Shown here: positions 37,432 to 60,345 of the stretch, one piece after another | Position numbering within the stretch: the stretch's first letter is position 1 | How the letters are laid out: the number at the start of each line of letters is the position of its first letter | Virus record (IMG/VR): IMGVR_UViG_3300033068_001989 | Span: 64,001-128,000 of that record | From: a virus | Taxonomy: Duplodnaviria > Caudoviricetes | Reading direction: 5' to 3' (one strand) | DNA length: 64,000 bases | Made by a program: the position numbers and the translations under genes | Notes under the pieces: model-generated | Told to the model about the DNA's origin: nothing | Database searches by the model: none | What the model saw: only the letters and a program-made list of their open reading frames with translations

Positions 37432-39162
37432 TTATGCTAAACCACCAGCAGGTACGTTAACATAGAATGTTAAGTACATAGTTTCAGGTAAGAAACCAGC
37501 TTCTACTAATGCATATCTAGATTTAACTGCGATCTTAGGTGACATTGTACCTTCAGAGATTGTCTGAATAGACTCTGCCATCATGTAAGGCATGAATTTT
37601 AATCCTGGTTCGTCATCACCACCTTTTCTTCCAATTAATACTCTCGTATCGTTGTAGTTCATGTTTTGATCTACATATACTGTCATACCAGCAAGAGAAC
37701 CTACAGGGTATAAAGTACCGTTATTTTGAGTTAATGTGTTAGAGAACGGTGCGAAAGTGAACTGAGAAATATCTTGAAGTGCACTTGCTACTGCAGCGTT
37801 AGTAACGATGAAGTTAGCAGGACCTCTTCTACCTCTATTAGCTACTACGTTTGCAGCTGCAAGGATTCTAGAGAATAATCTTCTTTGAAGAGTTGATAAG
37901 TTCTCATATCCACCTGAAGCAGGACCAGCAGGGATTGGCATAGTAACGTTAGCGTCTACTTTATTAATATAAGCAGCAGTTGTACTAGCACCACCGTTTA
38001 TAATAAGGTTTAAGTTTAAGTTTTGTTGTTCAACAGAGTTGAATTGAACGTGGTTAGACCAACCTAAAGCGAATGCTCTTGCTAAGATGTGTTTGTTAAT
38101 AGCTTGAGATACTTCATTAACCAATGCGTTCTCGATCATTGAGATAACGTCGATACCGAATTGTTTGTTAAGATCTTGTATTTGCTCTGTTGTAACAGAA
38201 GCAGCTACTTGGAATGTCTCAGCTTCAACGAATTTAGTGAAAGTTGAAAGACCCATTGAGTTGAAGTATGTAGACTCACCAACACCTCTTAACATTGGGT
38301 TGTAAGTTTTAGTACCATCAACATAAGGACCTTGCCAAGCTTGATCATTAGCGAAACCAGCACCAGAGAATCCTTGGATATGATCTTCTAAAGCTTTAAC
38401 TAATTGAGCAGCATAACCGTTTGGTGAGTAAGAAGCTCCAGTTGATAAAGCAGGACCAACAATACCAAAGTTTGTAAGTGCAGTTGGAGTACCGTTGATA
38501 TAGTTATTGATGTTTGATCCAGCAGCCATACCAGTTACTTGGAAGATTGGGAAACCATCAATTCTAGAAAGACCTACGAATGTTAAGTTTAATGTTCCAA
38601 TATTACCAGTAGCACCAACAGTTGGGAATGAAGCTGCAGTAGCACCTGTAGCACCTGTAGCACCAGATCCGGTATAAACTGGGAATTTAATCATTGTTGG
38701 AGCAGTAGCTAACTGATCAGCAGCTGTTGTAGCAGCACCAGCACCAAGTTTACCACCAGCATAAACGTAATCTAAGTAAGATAAGATACCAGTAGGACCT
38801 GACATAGGGATAACTGGAACGATATCAAAACCGATAGTTTTTGCAGCAACTTGAATTGCTAAAGGCAATAATGATGGGAATTTATCTCCAGATCCTTGCC
38901 ATTGTGTGTTATAGAAACCAGCATTAGCTTGAGTAGATAATGATGTACCACCCATATTCATTCCTGGATAAGCAGGAGGCGCAACGTTACCCATACCATT
39001 AACAACACCTAAAGAGTTATAAGCTCCAGCAGACTCGTTTAATGAGTGATAGTGGCAATATTTAGTTAACCACCCTTTTTTTCCTTCATCTGTGATACCA
39101 GCTTTACTTTCAATAAGCGGTGACCATGTATCGTAGATTTCTTGTTCGTTAATCAATTTCAT
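37432..39162 (-). CDS. gp23: Major capsid protein, T4 gp23-like
   Basis: DIVPVIPMSGPTG, TTEQIQDL, NRGRRGPANFIV, FMPYM..TMSPKIAVKSRYAL; strong codon bias; N-terminal LNE/S cleavage site. Confidence 0.92.
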   Translation of the reverse strand: MKLINEQEIYDTWSPLIESKAGITDEGKKGWLTKYCHYHSLNESAGAYNSLGVVNGMGNVAPPAYPGMNMGGTSLSTQANAGFYNTQWQGSGDKFPSLLPLAIQVAAKTIGFDIVPVIPMSGPTGILSYLDYVYAGGKLGAGAATTAADQLATAPTMIKFPVYTGSGATGATGATAASFPTVGATGNIGTLNLTFVGLSRIDGFPIFQVTGMAAGSNINNYINGTPTALTNFGIVGPALSTGASYSPNGYAAQLVKALEDHIQGFSGAGFANDQAWQGPYVDGTKTYNPMLRGVGESTYFNSMGLSTFTKFVEAETFQVAASVTTEQIQDLNKQFGIDVISMIENALVNEVSQAINKHILARAFALGWSNHVQFNSVEQQNLNLNLIINGGASTTAAYINKVDANVTMPIPAGPASGGYENLSTLQRRLFSRILAAANVVANRGRRGPANFIVTNAAVASALQDISQFTFAPFSNTLTQNNGTLYPVGSLAGMTVYVDQNMNYNDTRVLIGRKGGDDEPGLKFMPYMMAESIQTISEGTMSPKIAVKSRYALVEAGFLPETMYLTFYVNVPAGGLA

Positions 39163-45616: not shown

Positions 45617-46522
45617 TTATTTCTTTGAAATTTTATTAATAACTGTCGGGGGTAACCCTCTATGTGATTTTAAATATTCAAGATAACAAAGTTCCTTGTT
45701 TGGTGAATCTATTATAACATCAATGTCAAGTCCAAAAGTTGGAATTCTCATTGTTAATAAATCAGTACAAGTAGGGGAGAGAGCTTTACCGTTATTATCA
45801 ACATCTGCTGCTTCTGAATGAAAGAAGAAAGGTTTAGTATTTACCTTCCATGTTGATGCTGCAAGAAACATAGCCTCTCTTATAGATAATCCACCATCAT
45901 TGAACTGATGTGGTAATATTCTAAAGCATAGAGGTATCCCTGTTTCATAATAAACACCGGATAGAAGATCGGTTATTGAAAAAAGACTGGGTTTCTCGTC
46001 ATTAGTGACTGTTAATCTCTGAATTGTAGAATTTTTGAGTTTAGAGACCATCGAGCAGAATTCCTTCATTGTTTTTTTTCTGTTACCGTAGGCTGATCCT
46101 ATCCTTATAACTATCGAAGGTCCATTCATACCGATTACACCAAGAACATCGGAAAGCTTATTAAGTAGCTTTATAGTTTTTATTCTAATATCCTCGATTT
46201 GACTTCCTAGAAAATAATCCTTACCTATAAATATAACAACTCTCATCGAGTTTTTATTTATCAGTGAATTTATATCATTAATTTTTTCAGAGAGAAGAGG
46301 ATTTTCCTCCTCTATTAAATCGTCATCAAGGAAATCCTGAGTTATATCAAGCTCACTAAGATTTAAACAAACTATCTTAGATGATATCTTGGAATTTATT
46401 ATACATAAAGCCAAGATAAGATCAAGTATATCATCATATGAACATACTTGCTTATCTATTGTTATTGATTTCTTGGGAATCCCAAGATACGATATATTTG
46501 TTTGATTGTGTCCGAATATCAT
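45617..46522 (-). CDS. UvsE/UVDE-like TIM-barrel protein, apparently degenerate
   Basis: RLTVTNDEK, GIPLCF..HQFNDGGLS, AASTW..PFFFHSE match the UvsE layout; several expected His/Glu/Asp ligands are replaced. Confidence 0.6.
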   Translation of the reverse strand: MIFGHNQTNISYLGIPKKSITIDKQVCSYDDILDLILALCIINSKISSKIVCLNLSELDITQDFLDDDLIEEENPLLSEKINDINSLINKNSMRVVIFIGKDYFLGSQIEDIRIKTIKLLNKLSDVLGVIGMNGPSIVIRIGSAYGNRKKTMKEFCSMVSKLKNSTIQRLTVTNDEKPSLFSITDLLSGVYYETGIPLCFRILPHQFNDGGLSIREAMFLAASTWKVNTKPFFFHSEAADVDNNGKALSPTCTDLLTMRIPTFGLDIDVIIDSPNKELCYLEYLKSHRGLPPTVINKISKK

Positions 46523-47062: not shown

Positions 47063-47599
47063 TTATTTCTGATTTTTTTGGATATTTATAACATCCCTTA
47101 TCTTAGCAGCAAGCTCAAATTTCTCATCAGAAAGTGCTTTTTTTAGCATTTTATCAAGTGCATCAGATTCTGTTGTTTCCTCCTCTGGTTGATTTTTTAT
47201 ATTATTAGCTATTAGATACATCCTCTGAGGTGAATATATTACTTCCAACGTTGGGTCTAGAACCATCTCACCCATTATATCTTCCCCTTCCTCCTCCATT
47301 TCTTCCTTTATCTCGTTGAGATATTCCTCAGTCCATAATGGGTTATCCCAAAATATCATCCAATAACCATATATTAATTCAGGTATGTTATTTTCAATAA
47401 CATATTTAAGGAGACTCTTTAATTCATTCTTAAGATCATTCTTGGTAATGCCATCAGCAAAAGCCTTTCTCTTAACTCCTGGTATAACAGATACCCCGTC
47501 ACCAACTCCATGTTTAAAACATTTATTGACATCAAATATAACATCCCAGTCCATTCCTGAAATAACCTTGTCTATGACTCTATCAGTTTCCTTTTTCAT
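47063..47599 (-). CDS. Protein with C-terminal UVR (UvrB/UvrC) motif
   Basis: LDKMLKKALSDEKFELAAKIRDVI. Confidence 0.65.
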   Translation of the reverse strand: MKKETDRVIDKVISGMDWDVIFDVNKCFKHGVGDGVSVIPGVKRKAFADGITKNDLKNELKSLLKYVIENNIPELIYGYWMIFWDNPLWTEEYLNEIKEEMEEEGEDIMGEMVLDPTLEVIYSPQRMYLIANNIKNQPEEETTESDALDKMLKKALSDEKFELAAKIRDVINIQKNQK

Positions 47600-49205: not shown

Positions 49206-49727
49206 TTAATTAGAGAGATTAATCCACTCCATTGCTCCATCTATAATAAAATTTGGATCAGTTATTCTATGATCGAAATCGGTAAAGTTTTCAAAATCAT
49301 TCTCATCAGAAGCTAATCTTCTATCAACGATGTCAGCATCTTTTCGTTTAAGTAATCTTTCTCTTCTAACTTCAAAAGGTATATCGATATAAACTATAAA
49401 AGATTCTTTCCTATCCTCCGTTTTTAATTTACCTATACCTCCCGGTGTCATTATGAACAGATTTGATTTTTCAAATTCTTCAATTGATGTACCATAGAAC
49501 CATCCATTAAACATTACATATTCATATAGGAGTTTCTTCTCTATAAAATTATGTATAGCAGAATCCAAACTTATAAAATGATAATCGATACCATTAACCT
49601 CACCATCTCTTGGTGGTCTTGTCGTATGCGATACACAATATTTGAATCCATAATTTTCCATCTGTTGTCTAGCATGATCTTTTCCTGAACCTGCTTTTCC
49701 AACCAATATAATTCTTTTATTACTCAT
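49206..49727 (-). CDS. gmk: Guanylate kinase
   Basis: GKAGSGKD, VSHTTRPPRDGEVNGIDYHFI, WFYGT. Confidence 0.88.
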   Translation of the reverse strand: MSNKRIILVGKAGSGKDHARQQMENYGFKYCVSHTTRPPRDGEVNGIDYHFISLDSAIHNFIEKKLLYEYVMFNGWFYGTSIEEFEKSNLFIMTPGGIGKLKTEDRKESFIVYIDIPFEVRRERLLKRKDADIVDRRLASDENDFENFTDFDHRITDPNFIIDGAMEWINLSN

Positions 49728-50680: not shown

Positions 50681-52018
50681 TTAAAATTTAGTACTTAAAT
50701 CGTCAGCAGTATCCTTATCATTTCTTATCTCAATGAATCTAGGTAAAAATAAAGAACGGTTGCCATGCTTATCCTCTATTGTAACATTATATTGTACTGC
50801 AACTATTTTACCGATATGCTGATCTGGAGTTTCGCTTAATATCTTAAGATCGTTATCGGTAAAACCTGATCCAACCTTAACATTAAGTGTTCCTGATGAA
50901 TCAGTACATATAAAACCACCAATATACCCTTCTCTTTTTCCTTCCCCTGGATACCATCCACTAACAATTAAATCACAATCATTAACTTCCTTAAGTTTTA
51001 TCCAAGTCTTTGATCTTTTGCATTCATAGATGGAATTATTTTTACATATAACTCCCTCACCTCCATCAGAAACTATTTGCTTATAAATCTCTGCAACATC
51101 CGATGAATTATCTAATTCCCACATCCTTGCGAGTACAACCGGGCTATTATCAGGAAGAAATGATAATACTCTCTCTAGAGTTGATCTTCTTGTAAGATAA
51201 TCAAGAACACCAGAACCATGATTTAATGTCATAACTTCCTCAAAATCAAAAACATTAAAAAGCATATCATTATCTATATCCTTAGGAGCAGTCCCTCTTA
51301 GTATCTGGGTAACCTTCCCGCTAACAGATTTTCTATTGAGGTCAGTTAGTTCACCGTCAAAAAACCAATCACCAAGTATTCCTTGTCCACTATTGATCAT
51401 TGCAGTTTTTAGAGAAAATGATATACGAGAAAGACAGGTTGCATCTAATTCATTGAAAGCCCTAGTGAAGTATGTTATTTCGCCGGATTTGCATATTGCA
51501 ATAACCCTGACTCCATCATATTTTTCCTCACAATATATCTTTTTCCAATTTTCTATAACCTCGTGGTCGTCAGTAGCTAGCATAACAGAGGGATCAGGTA
51601 TAAGCTCATATCCTAGAGCTTTGTTTATAAGCTTAGCTCCAATTCCTATATTCATCCTTTTTGTTATGATTTTCATAAGAACCGATCTTAATTCCAAATC
51701 TTCCTCTGGGTTGTCGCTAATCTTAGTGGATATTAAATTGCAAGCTCTGCTTCTAAGATTATCATTGGCTGCAGAAGCATTTTTAAGCTCCTCTAATAGC
51801 AATCTAAAATCTTCCCATAGGTTAGGATTACTTTCTAATAAAACCTCATTATACGAGATCTTATGAAGTTTTGTTGTTACGAAAGGATTGAAGCAAACAT
51901 CAAGTATGTACTTAAGTTTATCATCAATATTGGATTTTATCAAATCCTGTTTGGATTTCTGCGAGCCGTTTCCGGTTAACAATTCAAGTTCTCTAAAGAG
52001 TCTTAATTTCTCTATCAT
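50681..52018 (-). CDS. lig: ATP-dependent DNA ligase (start revised from 52081)
   Basis: EEKYDGVR, FDGEL, VFDF, EGVICK, WIKLK, VGSGF, LFLPRF; the upstream in-frame extension crosses intergenic AT-rich DNA. Confidence 0.92.
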   Translation of the reverse strand: MIEKLRLFRELELLTGNGSQKSKQDLIKSNIDDKLKYILDVCFNPFVTTKLHKISYNEVLLESNPNLWEDFRLLLEELKNASAANDNLRSRACNLISTKISDNPEEDLELRSVLMKIITKRMNIGIGAKLINKALGYELIPDPSVMLATDDHEVIENWKKIYCEEKYDGVRVIAICKSGEITYFTRAFNELDATCLSRISFSLKTAMINSGQGILGDWFFDGELTDLNRKSVSGKVTQILRGTAPKDIDNDMLFNVFDFEEVMTLNHGSGVLDYLTRRSTLERVLSFLPDNSPVVLARMWELDNSSDVAEIYKQIVSDGGEGVICKNNSIYECKRSKTWIKLKEVNDCDLIVSGWYPGEGKREGYIGGFICTDSSGTLNVKVGSGFTDNDLKILSETPDQHIGKIVAVQYNVTIEDKHGNRSLFLPRFIEIRNDKDTADDLSTKF

Positions 52019-52081
52019 TCTTAATAATTTTAATTTTCTACAAAAATAAATAAAATATACGATTAAAAAAAATAAAGCCAC

Positions 52082-52116: not shown

Positions 52117-53754
52117 TTATAAAGTTACCTGTGGTGTCTCCTCCGCCCCTTCCGCTGGAGGGGTTTCTTTAGATTCTTCTGGCGTAGTTTCTCCCTCAGG
52201 AGGAGCGGAAGCTGCTCCAGCTTTTTCTTCAGCCTTTTTATATTGTTCGTTAAGCTTTAATTGATCCGGTGACATACCAATGAATCTTTGTATAAGGAAG
52301 TCGTTATCGAAATATGGAACATCCTCCTCTCCTGCCTTAACCTTAAGGTCAGCAAGCGAAGTTACAAATTCACTTTTCTTTTTAAGATTTGTCATTTCAA
52401 CCTGATCTTCAAACTCAAGATCTCTATTAAAATCAAGTCCTATATTAGCTTTAAAGTTTCTATCCTTAGCCAATTCTGGATAATCCAGACACATCTGTAT
52501 ATAAAGAGGTTTTACTAATATCTCCTGGAATATGGATCTAAGTCTTCTTAGAAATTTTTCGAATCTTATTTCGTCTCTCTCCAATTGATCTATCGCTATC
52601 TGATAATTAGCAGGTGTTCCGTTCTTTGCAGCAAATCTTGCATATGGTATTTTCGAATCCATTTTTAACTTATTGAAGAAATAAAGAACGTTATCCATAA
52701 CGTTAAAATCAGGACCGGAAGGATTTAGTGAAGATATCTCAGGTGAAACTCCGTTTTGTTCAGGAAATAAATAATTTTTATAAAACTGAACTTTAGGTCT
52801 ACCGTTTACTGTAAGTTCGCCCGAAGAATCATTAATACTGATTTCCTCCTTGTAATTCGACATAAGCTGTCCTAAGGTTTGCATTGCTTTTTGGGGTGAC
52901 TGAGTACCAATAGGAATGATGAATTTCATTCTATAGCTAGCATTCATAACATTCCATATAACTCTAGAATTCTCCATGATTCTAAGTATATTGTATGATC
53001 TAACTAATCTTTCAACATAACTTGTCCTTGATATTGTATTTCCCTTAGCATAAGATATGTAAATTATCTGTTCATTGGTAAGTTTCCTAAACATCTGGGG
53101 ATTATTAGGATACTGAAGCCAAAATTGCTTATATTCATTTTCACCAACCTTCTCAACAACAGGTTCAAGAGATACTGCATCCAATTCTTTAAATCCTATT
53201 ATTTCCTTACCTTTGCTATCATATATTATTTCAAACGCTAGAAATCCATCTATAATAAACTGTCTAAAATATTGCCAACCCAAAACAGTATTTTGAAATT
53301 GAAATATGTTATACAATCTATTGAAATGTGAACTTATCTTTTCTTTTATATTATCTTTAAGATCTATATTAGAAAAAGATGGCTGAGCAAAATAATTTCT
53401 ATCATCATAAACTATTGCTTCGTCAGTAATGATATCCAATATGAATTCAATCTCACCATTTATTGAGAACTTTCTAAGATAATTTCTCTTCTCAATATAC
53501 GATTTATCAAAATATGCTATATATTTTCTTACTTTAGTATCATGATACGATGCAGTCCACTGAAAAGCACTATCCTTAGTATAACCAGTGCCCTCCTGAT
53601 TGAAAAAAGCTCCCTCAGTTCTACCGATGGCCTGAGAGTTTCTAACAATCATATCATCGTATTGCATACCAAATTTGGATATATTACCCAAATTCTTCAA
53701 TATGTTACCCAATGCCGCTTGATTGGGTTTTAAAAAGTCTAAAAATCCTGCCAT
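52117..53754 (-). CDS. gp20: Portal protein, T4 gp20-like (copy 2)
   Basis: EIEFILDIITDEAIV, FRQFIIDG, LRIMENSRVIW, QLERDEIRFEKFLRRLRSIF. Confidence 0.88.
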   Translation of the reverse strand: MAGFLDFLKPNQAALGNILKNLGNISKFGMQYDDMIVRNSQAIGRTEGAFFNQEGTGYTKDSAFQWTASYHDTKVRKYIAYFDKSYIEKRNYLRKFSINGEIEFILDIITDEAIVYDDRNYFAQPSFSNIDLKDNIKEKISSHFNRLYNIFQFQNTVLGWQYFRQFIIDGFLAFEIIYDSKGKEIIGFKELDAVSLEPVVEKVGENEYKQFWLQYPNNPQMFRKLTNEQIIYISYAKGNTISRTSYVERLVRSYNILRIMENSRVIWNVMNASYRMKFIIPIGTQSPQKAMQTLGQLMSNYKEEISINDSSGELTVNGRPKVQFYKNYLFPEQNGVSPEISSLNPSGPDFNVMDNVLYFFNKLKMDSKIPYARFAAKNGTPANYQIAIDQLERDEIRFEKFLRRLRSIFQEILVKPLYIQMCLDYPELAKDRNFKANIGLDFNRDLEFEDQVEMTNLKKKSEFVTSLADLKVKAGEEDVPYFDNDFLIQRFIGMSPDQLKLNEQYKKAEEKAGAASAPPEGETTPEESKETPPAEGAEETPQVTL

Positions 53755-53758
53755 GTTA

Positions 53759-55375
53759 TTATAGTGTTACTTGTGGTGCTTCTTCCCCGCCTTCTTCTTT
53801 CTTAGACTCTTTCCCTCCTGCTGCCTTTTCAGTTTTCGCTTTCTCCTTCGCCTTTCTTTCTTTGGCCTCTTTGTTAGCTATTATATCCTGTTTAGACATA
53901 CCTAAATACTCCTCTATAAGAAATGCATTGGAAAAAAATGGTTTACCGTCATCATTCATTAGACCACCAAGACTAGAGATTGTTTCCTTTCTCTGTACCA
54001 TCTTACCTATTTCCTGATTTTCTTTAAACGGATTGTCAGACCAGTAATTAAGTCCCAATTGACTTTTGAATAGAAAATCTTTTTCAAGATATGGATATTT
54101 ATTAACCATCTGTAGCCACATAGGTTTAACTAATATTTCCTGGAATACGGATCTAAGTCTAGATATAAATTTATAGAATCTTATTTCCTCTTTATCTAAT
54201 CCCTCTGCTCCATTTGAATATGGTGATGTGCTACCTCCGTCAGGATTATGAAACCTCGATGGTGGAACCTTAGATTCCAATATAAATTTATCAAAGAAAT
54301 ATGTTAATGGAGCAGGGTCATTCAAATTTGGTCCCTCTGTATTTATTGGCTCGATAGTCGGTGTTCCGTTAACACCAGAAGGCATAAGATAATTCTTATA
54401 GAACTGTATCTTTGGTCTACCGTCAACAGTAAGCTCGCCGCTTTCATCATTTAACTGTATGTCTTCCTTATATACGCTCATAAGTTCCCCCAATGTTTGC
54501 ATACCTTTTTGTTGAGATTTTGTACCTATAGGAACAGTCATTTTAAGTTTAAATGAAGCATTCATAACAGACCATATAACTCTAGTATATTCTATTATCC
54601 TCAATATATTATAAGGTCTTATAAGTCTCTCGATATAACTAACCCTTGATATTGAATTACCCTTGGCGTATGATATGTATATTATTTGGGGATCATATAG
54701 TACCCTTTTCTTCTTTGGGTCCTGAGGGTATTGTGTCCAAGTACTAACAAAGCTTCCATCCAATTGCTTCTCCACACTAGGAATAAGAGTTATCGGATCA
54801 AGTTCCTTAAAACCGACTATCTTCTTACCACTGTCATCATATACGATTTCAAATGCTAGAAATCCGTCTATAATAAACTGTCTAAAATATTGCCATGCTG
54901 TTATATCATCAGAAAATCCCCATATATCATACAGATTCTTATATACATCATATAGCTCATCCTTTACCTTCTCGTTTACGTCAGTAAGATCTATAAAATC
55001 CGGATATGCAAAAAAATTAGCGGGATCGTAAGTTATTGCTTCATCACATATTGTATCAAGAACCCATTCAACCTCAGGATTAAGAGAGAACATTCTTAAA
55101 AATTCTCGCTTACCTTTATAATCCTTATCGAAGTATCCTATGAATTGTCTGGATGTTACATCTTGCTTAGCAAGAGCCCATAGCATGCTTTCGTCCTCTA
55201 CGTTCGATTTATTCTTATTAAGAAAAGCTGCTTCGGTTACACCGACAGCCTGTGAATTTCTTATAACCATGTCATCATACTTCATACCAAAAGTACTAAG
55301 CTTTTTGACCGACTCACGTATTCTCTGTATTACCGGAGATTCCGATGGTTTATTATTATCTACAAAACCTGCCAT
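53759..55375 (-). CDS. gp20: Portal protein, T4 gp20-like (copy 1)
   Basis: PEVEWVLDTICDEAI, FRQFIIDG, SKVPPSRF, DKEEIRFYKFISRLRSVF. Confidence 0.88.
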   Translation of the reverse strand: MAGFVDNNKPSESPVIQRIRESVKKLSTFGMKYDDMVIRNSQAVGVTEAAFLNKNKSNVEDESMLWALAKQDVTSRQFIGYFDKDYKGKREFLRMFSLNPEVEWVLDTICDEAITYDPANFFAYPDFIDLTDVNEKVKDELYDVYKNLYDIWGFSDDITAWQYFRQFIIDGFLAFEIVYDDSGKKIVGFKELDPITLIPSVEKQLDGSFVSTWTQYPQDPKKKRVLYDPQIIYISYAKGNSISRVSYIERLIRPYNILRIIEYTRVIWSVMNASFKLKMTVPIGTKSQQKGMQTLGELMSVYKEDIQLNDESGELTVDGRPKIQFYKNYLMPSGVNGTPTIEPINTEGPNLNDPAPLTYFFDKFILESKVPPSRFHNPDGGSTSPYSNGAEGLDKEEIRFYKFISRLRSVFQEILVKPMWLQMVNKYPYLEKDFLFKSQLGLNYWSDNPFKENQEIGKMVQRKETISSLGGLMNDDGKPFFSNAFLIEEYLGMSKQDIIANKEAKERKAKEKAKTEKAAGGKESKKEEGGEEAPQVTL

Positions 55376-55414
55376 TTAATTTATTTTTTTGATATTTATA
55401 TATCGAGATTAATG

Positions 55415-55900
55415 CTATCTACTCTTGAATAAAAAATTTTCGTCAATAACTCCAAATCTATATCCTCTCTTATCTGCCCATTCCTTAGCTGCTTTGAATT
55501 TTGCTTGGTTGGTTATCCATATTTGCATATTTCTGTTATATGACTTAAGCTTAGCTAAAGTCATAACACCTTCCATTATGGGTTTAATCGTTTGTTTTTC
55601 TGGTTTTATCTCTATTATCCATTCCTGTTCACTATTATCTTCCTTTAGGACCTTTATATAAAAATCAACATTATAGTTATGGTCTTTTTTATCAAGAGGA
55701 TTGTAATATGGTATAACAACCGGTTCAGAGCTCCATTTTAATATGGATTCATTTGTGTCACAGTATGTACAAAACCTATATTCCCAGGAAGATCTATAGA
55801 TAATATTATGTATATCACCTATATACTTATCAGGATTCTTAGGATCATATTTACCAGATTTATATTCACCATTAGGTTTTATCTTCTTGATATCTGGCAT
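55415..55900 (-). CDS. gp4: Head completion protein gp4 (TnsA-like nuclease fold)
   Basis: GKYDPKNPDKYIGD, IYRSSWE, KWSSEPVVIPY, IEIKP, NQAKFKAA. Confidence 0.88.
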   Translation of the reverse strand: MPDIKKIKPNGEYKSGKYDPKNPDKYIGDIHNIIYRSSWEYRFCTYCDTNESILKWSSEPVVIPYYNPLDKKDHNYNVDFYIKVLKEDNSEQEWIIEIKPEKQTIKPIMEGVMTLAKLKSYNRNMQIWITNQAKFKAAKEWADKRGYRFGVIDENFLFKSR

Positions 55901-55903
55901 AGT

Positions 55904-56263
55904 CTAGATGTTATATGAATTATCATCACCAGTTATATAACTAAATGGGATCGTTACCGGATTTTTTGGTGGATGTAATTTCTTCCATCCTTTGGCAAAT
56001 CCATGCTTAGCTATCTGTGTAAAATAAGCAAATGGATTGTTAGATTTTTCCGGATTGAATCTATTCCAATATTTACATAAATCTTCCATAGCAAAAGCCA
56101 TGCAATCCTCTCTATCCTCAGGATCCTTGTATGACATTTTCTTAGATATACCTTCAATCATAAGATTGAACATATCTATAGTTGCTGGCGTTAATTTTCC
56201 AGCATTCTTCGATTCAATAACAGCTGCCATTAGCTCGCTATTCTTTACATAAACTTTTGCCAT
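55904..56263 (-). CDS. gp55: Late-transcription sigma factor, T4 gp55-like (short)
   Basis: YVKNSEL, YKDPEDREDC, RFNPEKSNNPFAYFTQI. Confidence 0.8.
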   Translation of the reverse strand: MAKVYVKNSELMAAVIESKNAGKLTPATIDMFNLMIEGISKKMSYKDPEDREDCMAFAMEDLCKYWNRFNPEKSNNPFAYFTQIAKHGFAKGWKKLHPPKNPVTIPFSYITGDDNSYNI

Positions 56264-59168: not shown

Positions 59169-59654
59169 TTATCTACCTATTAATATCTCCAATTTTATCT
59201 GAAAATCACTATGAGGATTATTAAATATTATACCTCCATTGTTTAGATATTCATTAGGTTTTGATAAATTCCATCCATCATAGGAGGAATCTGTAGAATA
59301 TTGTTTAGCACCAGAGAGTACCATTAATTCACCCATGTTCATGGTTTGCCCCTTATATACCCAGGTTAGATACTTATTAGATTCAACCATATTATCAGGG
59401 AATTTTGCTTTTATTGCAATAAAGCTAACATATCCCATGGTATCTCCAACATCGCTCTGGCTTAACAAGAAAGATTCACCACCATTTAGGGAAACTCTGC
59501 TTTTCGAAAACGATTCAACACCTATAAGTAGGTCATTCATAGAAAGATATTTTGGTGGAGATGATCTTTTTCCGTCATCAAGTACAAGATTATCTCTATA
59601 AAATCTAAATCCCTCCGGCGTGTCATACGGACACTCTACTGGTCTTGTTGCCAT
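59169..59654 (-). CDS. Putative structural beta-sandwich protein (paralog of 59656-60345)
   Basis: Shared W.Y....MG.xMxLxGA..GW..NGGxIFxNP....KLxI pattern. Confidence 0.55.
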   Translation of the reverse strand: MATRPVECPYDTPEGFRFYRDNLVLDDGKRSSPPKYLSMNDLLIGVESFSKSRVSLNGGESFLLSQSDVGDTMGYVSFIAIKAKFPDNMVESNKYLTWVYKGQTMNMGELMVLSGAKQYSTDSSYDGWNLSKPNEYLNNGGIIFNNPHSDFQIKLEILIGR

Positions 59655-59655
59655 A

Positions 59656-60345
59656 TTAGTTTGCTGTTATTATTGTCAATTTTACAACCATGCTTGTTGG
59701 ATTGGTAAATATAAAACCACCATTAGCACTATTTGGTAAATCGTTATGATTATAGGTACTAAAAGGATCTATATCCCATCCCTTCCAATTATAGCCATTC
59801 TTTATTGCTCCTGTGAGTATCATAAAATCTCCCATAACATTTCGTTGCGAAGCTAGATAATCCCACAATAAAACTTTATCGTCATCATTAGCCTCTGGTA
59901 AATATTCGGCCTTTGCTATTAACATAGATATTTCACCATTGGTATTTGTGAATGATCCAGGATCAAGATTGAAAGAAGTTGTTGGGTTTATTATTATCGT
60001 TTGTTTTTGATAATTAGAAAAACTCTGCAACGGATGGAAAAAATCAGCAACATCAAGAAAGTCCAAAACTTGAGATTGGTAGACAACATCAAAAGATTCC
60101 TTTATAAATTTTACACCTACAGGTTCATTAAATCTTTGGAAGGTTGCTTCTATCGACTTAAATTGACTCTTTATTAATGCAATATTTTTATAATCCGTCT
60201 TAAAAGATCCTGTTGCACCGTTATCTGGGGATTGATTGGGACCTATTGGAAAATTTGAACCACCGCCTGATATCTCATTTCCACCAGGATATGCTGCAGA
60301 TCCTCCGTCGTAGTTATTTATGCTTGGAGCTTCTAAGTCTTTCAC
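59656..60345 (-). CDS. Putative structural beta-sandwich protein (paralog of 59169-59654)
   Basis: LLWDY..VMGDFMILTGA..KGWD..NGGFIFTNPTSMVVKLTII. Confidence 0.55.
   Translation of the reverse strand: MKDLEAPSINNYDGGSAAYPGGNEISGGGSNFPIGPNQSPDNGATGSFKTDYKNIALIKSQFKSIEATFQRFNEPVGVKFIKESFDVVYQSQVLDFLDVADFFHPLQSFSNYQKQTIIINPTTSFNLDPGSFTNTNGEISMLIAKAEYLPEANDDDKVLLWDYLASQRNVMGDFMILTGAIKNGYNWKGWDIDPFSTYNHNDLPNSANGGFIFTNPTSMVVKLTIITAN

Follow-up and report, generated by a model that had tools for sequence, protein, structure and literature searches.

Two tandem, diverged T4 gp20-type portal genes in a clade of uncultured huge phages: conservation of the pair and a possible mixed portal ring

The tandem portal locus

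Bases 64001–128000 of the 207,751-bp IMG/VR virus record IMGVR_UViG_3300033068_001989 (Caudoviricetes), a stretch of 64,000 nucleotides that is termed the window below, contain two adjacent full-length genes for T4 gp20-type portal proteins on the minus strand. We refer to the upstream copy as A and to the downstream copy as B. Coordinates are those of the window unless a genome label precedes them; G000 denotes the window's own 207,751-bp record and G001 and G002 denote two complete relatives. The portal locus comprises the following features.

53759..55375, minus strand: portal paralog A, T4 gp20-type, 538 amino acids (aa), upstream copy (open reading frame, PF07230, phrog_213, Foldseek)
53755..53758, minus strand: A–B spacer, 4 nt (TAAC), from the A stop to the B ATG (sequence)
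52117..53754, minus strand: portal paralog B, T4 gp20-type, 545 aa, downstream copy (open reading frame, PF07230, phrog_213, phmmer)

The spacer is too short for a promoter or a terminator. A and B align over their full length with 48% identity, 68% positives and 13 gap columns (BLASTP), and they have a MAGF start and a PQVTL end in common. The first-pass annotation of this DNA had described two tandem, full-length, diverged gp20-like portals, and this description holds: both open reading frames (ORFs) are present on the minus strand, both products belong to Portal_T4 and all of the shared blocks, MAGF starts and PQVTL ends that it quoted occur in A and in B. The PF07230 (Portal_T4) model, which has a curated cut-off of 22.9 bits, matches A with 192.2 bits (E = 1.7e-56, model positions 9–430 of 433) and B with 228 bits (E = 2.4e-67, model positions 4–431 of 433). 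Both proteins also match the portal family phrog_213 (E = 2.8e-54 for A and 4.9e-68 for B), and B matches the T4 gp20 structures 3ja7, 6uzc and 9lu6 with an E value of 2e-19 (phmmer). A and B are the only portal matches in the whole 207,751-bp record. Judged from their sequences, both A and B are functional, paralogous portals of the T4 gp20 type.

A Foldseek search with an AlphaFold2 (AF2) model of A returned chains of T4 gp20 as the top matches (9mkb, 6uzc, 9lu7 and 3ja7), with E values from 1.6e-15 to 1.5e-11, a probability of 1.00 and a template-modelling score of ~0.5, followed by other phage portals. The order of helices and strands in the AF2 model of B is the same as that in A. The wing, stem, clip, tunnel loop and crown follow one another in the order of the portal fold, as seen in the model of A and, for B, in the secondary-structure order combined with the sequence match to 3ja7. 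The clip and the tunnel loop score low in the modelling, which is common when ring-forming proteins are modelled as monomers. A complex prediction for A (residues 85–505) and B (residues 85–510) with alignments gave a score of 0.03, compared with a mark of 0.32, and was not used as evidence either way.

A and B thus share with T4 gp20 their sequence family, fold and domain order. They differ from it in that T4 has one portal gene, whereas two full-length paralogs are present here, and in that the identity to T4 gp20 is only ~15–17%. Compared with T4 gp20, A and B also have an extra conserved N-terminal motif, low-complexity C-terminal linkers and a shared ..PxVTL peptide.

Conservation and origin of the portal pair

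Ortholog loci were collected from IMG/VR and the counts are lower bounds. Orthologs of A were found at at least 80 loci (65–97% identity) and orthologs of B at at least 80 loci (64–96% identity), mostly on the same contigs. Two tandem portal ORFs are present in 154 of the 162 loci; the eight loci with a single portal comprise three that are cut at a contig edge (L021, L145 and L148) and five outgroup records. Both full-length genes are found in 78 distinct genomes, with A upstream of B in all of them and an A–B gap of 4–26 nt (78/78). The complete genomes G001 (430,120 bp) and G002 (434,509 bp), which carry direct terminal repeats (DTRs), encode exactly two portals each. One portal gene per genome is therefore not what is found in the record, in G001 and G002 or in the 78 distinct genomes. 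No loss of one portal copy was seen among relatives with enough contig. The first-pass annotation had argued against an assembly artefact and had named the presence of only one copy in close relatives as a finding that would speak against its reading. Its argument is strengthened by the 78 genomes, which include the complete DTR genomes and in which both copies are intact, old and diverged, and all relatives with enough contig keep both copies.

Two full-length portals were encountered in none of the 1,324 GenBank phage records with a match. Only LR756501 and LR756503 have two matching places, the second of which is a 101-aa fragment. A second portal in LR756501 was rejected, as this 101-aa ORF (LR756501.1:15166-15351, minus strand) matches only the last 58 model positions. 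The nearest portal relatives (34–44% identity) are encoded by LR756500, LR756502, LR756501, LR745206 and the Prevotella Lak megaphages, all of which have very large genomes. These single-copy huge phages share the MAGF or MASY start and the GMxYDDMxxRN block with A and B but have one portal gene and one tail-tube gene and lack the ..VTL C-terminus (no such motif was found in LR756500). A megablast search of GenBank phages with the locus gave no match, and no cultured relative was found in GenBank, where the nearest phages are uncultured huge phages (LR756500, 44% identity) and the Lak megaphages (36%).

Phylogenies were calculated with FastTree for 156 distinct proteins and with an IQ-TREE mixture model for a subset. 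The A and B clades are each monophyletic with 100% support and their union is supported at 99%. The single-copy portals of LR756500, of its 64%-identical relatives and of LR756502 and LR756501 branch outside A+B. The A and B subtrees are mirror images with three sub-clades in common, and their stems measure 0.44 and 0.46. These mirrored sister clades therefore point to a single basal duplication in the clade, after which the two copies were strictly inherited together. On the evidence of the trees, the portal duplication is younger than the divergence from huge phages with one portal, for example LR756500.

Synonymous sites are saturated in most genome pairs, and the ratio of nonsynonymous to synonymous rates (dN/dS, omega) was taken from unsaturated comparisons. 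In all of these omega is ~0.02–0.03 for A and B alike; between the window and the locus L084, for example, the values are 0.022 (A) and 0.037 (B). The mean pairwise protein distance is 0.241 for A and 0.238 for B (r = 0.96) and the identity between A and B is 47–54% within every genome. By these measures purifying selection is equally strong on both proteins, which evolve at equal rates, and neither is relaxed. A and B are thus both co-inherited (in tandem in 78/78 genomes) and under purifying selection. Two of the checks that the first-pass annotation had proposed, a phylogeny of both copies and dN/dS, gave two sister clades from one old duplication and no relaxed selection on either copy. 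In the 62 genomes with A, B, the gp4-like gene and the DNA ligase gene, the A–B pairwise distances correlate with r = 0.955, compared with 0.82–0.87 for other neighbour pairs. The partial correlation between A and B given gp4 and ligase is 0.77, and the values for A–gp4 and B–ligase are both 0.30. This rate covariation is supportive only, as the pairs are non-independent and paralogs share constraints.

The alignment columns of the 78 A/B pairs were classed at 90% conservation. In this classification, 161 columns are fixed and the same in A and B, 28 are fixed but different, 83 are conserved in A only and 87 in B only. Domain borders were carried over from T4 (PMC4493910) through the sequence alignment of B with T4 gp20. 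Twenty of the 28 fixed differences fall within residues 248–392 of B, which span stem α5, the clip, stem α7 and the tunnel loop; this clustering has a Fisher p value of 0.0015 against the fixed-and-same sites and of 4e-7 against all columns. In T4 gp20, neighbouring subunits share a β-sheet in the clip, while the tunnel loop contacts that of the adjacent subunit and has a gating function for the DNA (PMC4493910); the stem, clip and tunnel loop of T4 thus provide contacts between subunits and line the channel through which the DNA passes. The clip-tip block that aligns with T4 residues N291–K296, which contact the terminase, is conserved in A and B. The N-terminal block MAGF...GMxYDDMxxRNSQAxG is conserved in both as well, and the single-copy outgroups also have this block.

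The C-termini of the two proteins end in the following short peptides.

53762..53791, minus strand: C-terminal decapeptide of A, ending in PQVTL-COOH, after a low-complexity Lys/Glu/Gly linker (sequence)
52120..52149, minus strand: C-terminal decapeptide of B, ending in PQVTL-COOH, after a low-complexity Pro/Glu/Ala/Gly linker (sequence)

Both tails consist of a low-complexity linker of ~40 residues, the composition of which differs between A and B, followed by ..GEE(E/K)(A/P)P(E/Q/A)VT(L/I). The last five residues are the same in A and B in 28 of the 78 genomes, compared with a mean of 5.4 and a maximum of 12 after shuffling, and the suffix common to A and B extends to up to 10 residues. A tree built from the cores only gives ~12 independent contrasts with a change in the A tip; the B tip changes in the same way in ~8–9 of these and in the opposite way in none. 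Codons are identical at 110 of 177 positions in common tips, compared with 66 expected from codon usage, while the codon identity at same-residue core positions is 0.52 compared with 0.47 expected. As codon identity exceeds expectation in the tips and lies near expectation in the core, and as the tips change in concert, the sequences indicate that the tips of A and B are homogenized while their cores stay apart. Homogenization probably proceeds by short gene-conversion tracts that selection lets fix. The ..VTL motif has been lost in ~3 changes in A (30 genomes) and in ~7 changes in B (8 genomes). The proposal that at least one copy always retains ..VTL was dropped: both copies lack it in 1/78 genomes, compared with 3.1 expected if the losses are independent, and the difference is not significant. 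The peptide may serve to dock a partner that A and B have in common within the head, a reading suggested by the position of the T4 C-terminus in the crown.

Expression, neighbourhood and distribution

One further feature directly upstream of A bears on expression of the pair.

55393..55400, minus strand: TATAAATA, T4 late-promoter consensus, candidate promoter 17 nt before the A ATG (sequence)

The first-pass annotation had placed both genes behind one late motif. The motif itself stands, with TATAAATA 17 nt before A and none before B. Its significance does not: TATAAATA occurs in the window at the frequency expected by chance (16 occurrences versus 16.2 expected) and within 60 nt upstream of A in only 7/78 relatives, and a T4 late promoter was dropped as the common control element on these grounds. 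Co-transcription is better argued from the gap of 4–26 nt that separates A and B in 78/78 genomes than from the late motif. From this spacing we infer that A and B are transcribed together, and they are probably translationally coupled. As a separate observation, a block containing ATCGAAATTAA lies ~35–45 nt upstream of the A ATG in many relatives that lack the T4 late consensus (equivalent to window positions 55376–55435); this block may correspond to the last part of gp4 or to a promoter element specific to the clade.

A wastewater metatranscriptome contains 100%-identical contigs in both A and B, and in a river metatranscriptome the greater part of A and of B is covered for a relative that is ~92% identical. 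These RNA-library pieces of A and B (X19 and X20) are assembled contigs and may be DNA carry-over. No contig bridging the A–B junction is among the RNA contigs listed; the junction is bridged by a contig from a run that is probably DNA.

The portal pair is surrounded by the following genes, to which the major capsid gene is added.

55904..56263, minus strand: gp55-like late sigma factor (phrog_234, E = 4.9e-15; Sigma70_r2, 23.4 bits, just below the cut-off of 24)
55415..55900, minus strand: gp4-like head-completion protein with a TnsA-like endonuclease N-terminal domain, directly upstream of A (phrog_218, E = 2.6e-48; PF08722, E = 9.8e-19)
50681..52081, minus strand: ATP-dependent DNA ligase, directly downstream of B, which ends the portal pair (phrog_114, E = 1.9e-77; PF01068)
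37432..39162, minus strand: major capsid protein, gp23-like, 576 aa, single full-length copy in the record (PF07068 at G000:101489-102877, E = 1.2e-40)

The gene order of gp55-like sigma factor, gp4-like protein, A, B, DNA ligase, clamp loader and guanylate kinase constitutes a T4-like neighbourhood. The TnsA-like domain of the gp4-like protein agrees with the literature, cited in PMC7824862, in which T4 gp4 is regarded as a nuclease. About 12 kb upstream of the portals, genes for the large terminase, the sheath and two tube proteins are arranged in T4 order, and the portals therefore have T4-like morphogenesis genes around them. The large terminase was located at G000:135994-137820 by a PHROG search; a search of the genomes with the Pfam model Terminase_6C gave no match.

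The two tube genes are a tandem pair of gp19-like tail-tube genes at G000:131400-131975 and 131990-132544 (191 and 184 aa), the products of which are 56–58% identical. The pair (equivalent to L166:5400-6544) is situated ~3.4 kb past the end of the window, directly after the large terminase gene and a 1,115-aa sheath gene. Two tube genes are present in all eight dual-portal genomes tested (8/8) and one in each of the single-portal outgroups (6/6). In a small tree, the tube duplication postdates the split from the LR756500 lineage, with the 191-aa copy on a longer branch. The tube and portal duplications fall on the same stem branch, and their co-distribution, being a single event on one branch, is suggestive only. 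Two other tandem pairs, at G000:C1:157148-159152 and 160530-162040, were considered as co-duplicated neck proteins and rejected, since they match no family and neither G002 nor the outgroups have them; these pairs, which are present in G001 too, are accessory genes.

Some other genes of these genomes were noted. A second, short gp23-like ORF (~300 aa, E = 1e-12) lies far from the main capsid gene in both complete relatives (G001:C1:73823-74635 and G002:C1:87367-88128) but was not detected in the window's own record, which is incomplete; this ORF may encode a vertex (gp24-like) paralog or a fragment-type protein. Downstream of the portals, the replication block contains genes that are unusual for a phage, encoding a UvdE-type UV endonuclease (45617–46522), a protein with a UvrB/UvrC-motif C-terminus (47063–47599) and a guanylate kinase (49206–49727), all on the minus strand. 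Adjacent ORFs at 59169–59654 and 59656–60345 (minus strand; 161 and 229 aa) are weak paralogs (28% identity over 163 aa, E = 7e-11), and a PHROG search with the ORF at 59656–60345 gave no match. Three homing-endonuclease-like paralogs (G000:C1:869-1543, 176205-176852 and 177127-177777; phrog_314) are 57–65% identical.

Besides the two complete terminal-repeat genomes, close relatives include further complete genomes of 319–349 kb, and the phage with this portal pair is considered to be a huge phage because its complete relatives are that large. The GC content is ~33%. Near-identical DNA is present in river, lake, freshwater, groundwater and wastewater runs from 12 studies, and the dual-portal clade is common. 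From the genomes recovered, the clade is a large group of uncultured huge phages of about 320–435 kb in fresh water and wastewater.

A mixed portal ring and the alternatives

Besides nucleating head assembly, the portal provides the docking site and the sensor of the packaging motor. To our knowledge, it is a ring of twelve identical subunits in every system studied. Lexical searches of the open-access literature, including a comparative review of jumbo phages, found no report of two portal genes, of portal paralogs or of a heteromeric portal in a tailed phage or a herpesvirus.

The first-pass annotation had proposed either a heteromeric (for example alternating 6+6) portal or a second specialized vertex; both are compatible with the findings, and we favour the former. 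We put at about an even chance the proposal that A and B co-assemble in one mixed portal ring, for example an alternating A6B6 ring. A and B would be made together from adjacent genes, in similar amounts, and would co-assemble into one mixed dodecameric portal; an alternating A6B6 arrangement would have six-fold rather than twelve-fold symmetry. As A and B would occupy equivalent positions in one ring, their clip tip, N-terminal motif and C-terminal peptide would be kept alike. Co-expressed paralogs of homo-oligomeric ring proteins usually co-assemble, and in many cases the heteromer becomes obligate; the proteasome, CCT and the V-ATPase c-ring are examples. We favour the mixed ring because co-assembly is thus the default for co-expressed paralogs of a homomeric ring, because the divergence of A and B is perfectly symmetric and because the partner-facing parts are alike, while the fixed differences are located where subunits meet each other and the DNA. 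A more specific proposal, in which the A6B6 alternation is obligate and the DNA conduit consists of paired subunits from the portal to the tube, is tentative and in our estimate falls somewhat short of even.

Several points weigh against a mixed ring. The portal structures solved so far are without exception homo-oligomeric (for example T4 3JA7, 6UZC and 9MKB). The AF2 monomer models have only moderate confidence, with predicted local distance difference test (pLDDT) scores of 60.5 and 58.5. The fixed A/B differences are conservative (M/F, W/Y, V/I, S/N and D/E) and do not carry a charge-swap signature that would exclude homomers. The full-length fold, the retention of both copies, the single duplication, the equal constraint and the co-expression fit two homomeric rings equally well, and the clustering of differences, the conserved clip tip, the concerted tips and the rate covariation are also expected from two rings that share capsid, terminase and scaffold. 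Furthermore, shared ancestry inflates the rate-covariation and shuffle statistics.

The most serious alternative, which we consider less likely than the mixed ring, is that of two separate homododecamers, A12 and B12, with different jobs: one ring could nucleate the prohead and take up the DNA and the other be a stacked or second ring, the two could sit at different vertices, or they could serve in alternative particles or conditions. It is consistent with the retention of every domain and of the clip tip in both proteins, the 48% identity over a long period would allow insulated interfaces to arise, and the fixed differences in the tunnel loop and channel could reflect different roles in gating DNA. 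The tight co-expression (spacer of 4–26 nt in 78/78), however, makes unmixed assembly hard, and the divergence is symmetric in rate and constraint, whereas specialization is usually asymmetric. The N- and C-terminal partner-binding motifs are the same in A and B. Moreover, in the regions examined of the record, which is incomplete, only a single full-length gene for the major capsid protein and a single gene for the large terminase were found.

Less likely still, one copy has left the portal role although it retains the fold, and now assists assembly, nucleates the scaffold or protects against portal-sensing defence as a decoy or shield, being absent from or minor in the mature vertex. Some bacterial Avs-type defence proteins recognize phage portal proteins, which could give a second portal-like protein a role in conflict, and the ..VTL motif can be lost from either copy. 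Against such a role, neither copy displays relaxed or accelerated evolution, loss of a domain or asymmetric divergence from the single-copy outgroups, and the architecture of the clip tip, stem and tunnel loop is retained in both; a decoy would not need an omega of ~0.02 over its whole length. Lastly, a two-strain mis-assembly or a neutral recent duplicate that is being lost, for which nothing more than the general rarity of two portal genes speaks, is refuted by the same arrangement in 78 genomes from many samples, by the near-identical DNA in 12 studies and the contig that bridges the A–B junction, and by the constant A–B identity, the strong selection on both copies and the absence of any loss.

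A mixed A/B ring would have precedents in the proteasome α/β rings, CCT, MCM2-7 and the V-ATPase c-ring (Vma3/11/16), which are hetero-rings that arose from homo-oligomers by duplication. The route proposed for A and B is the same, namely duplication, co-expression and co-assembly, after which both copies are indispensable. These rings are an analogy and have no homology to portals, and the co-assembly of A and B is itself a proposal. The capsid protein gp23 and its vertex paralog gp24 of T4 are a precedent for structural paralogs of the virion with distinct, fixed positions in one assembly. They differ in that gp23 and gp24 occupy different lattice positions (hexamer versus pentamer), whereas a portal forms one closed ring and occupies only one vertex.

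An A6B6 portal, if true, would be the first heteromeric portal known in a tailed phage or a herpesvirus. The portal sits at the long-debated mismatches of 12-fold with 5-fold and 6-fold symmetry; in an A6B6 portal the 12-fold ring would become 6-fold and would match the tail directly, and paired subunits may make up the DNA conduit over its full length, from the portal to the tube. Any A/B pair of the clade could be tested by co-expression and cryo-electron microscopy without culture of the phage. In addition, a mixed ring would clearly illustrate, for viruses, how a homomeric ring gains complexity by duplication. A natural, widespread and stably inherited two-gene portal would offer a new way into the questions of assembly, packaging and symmetry mismatch.

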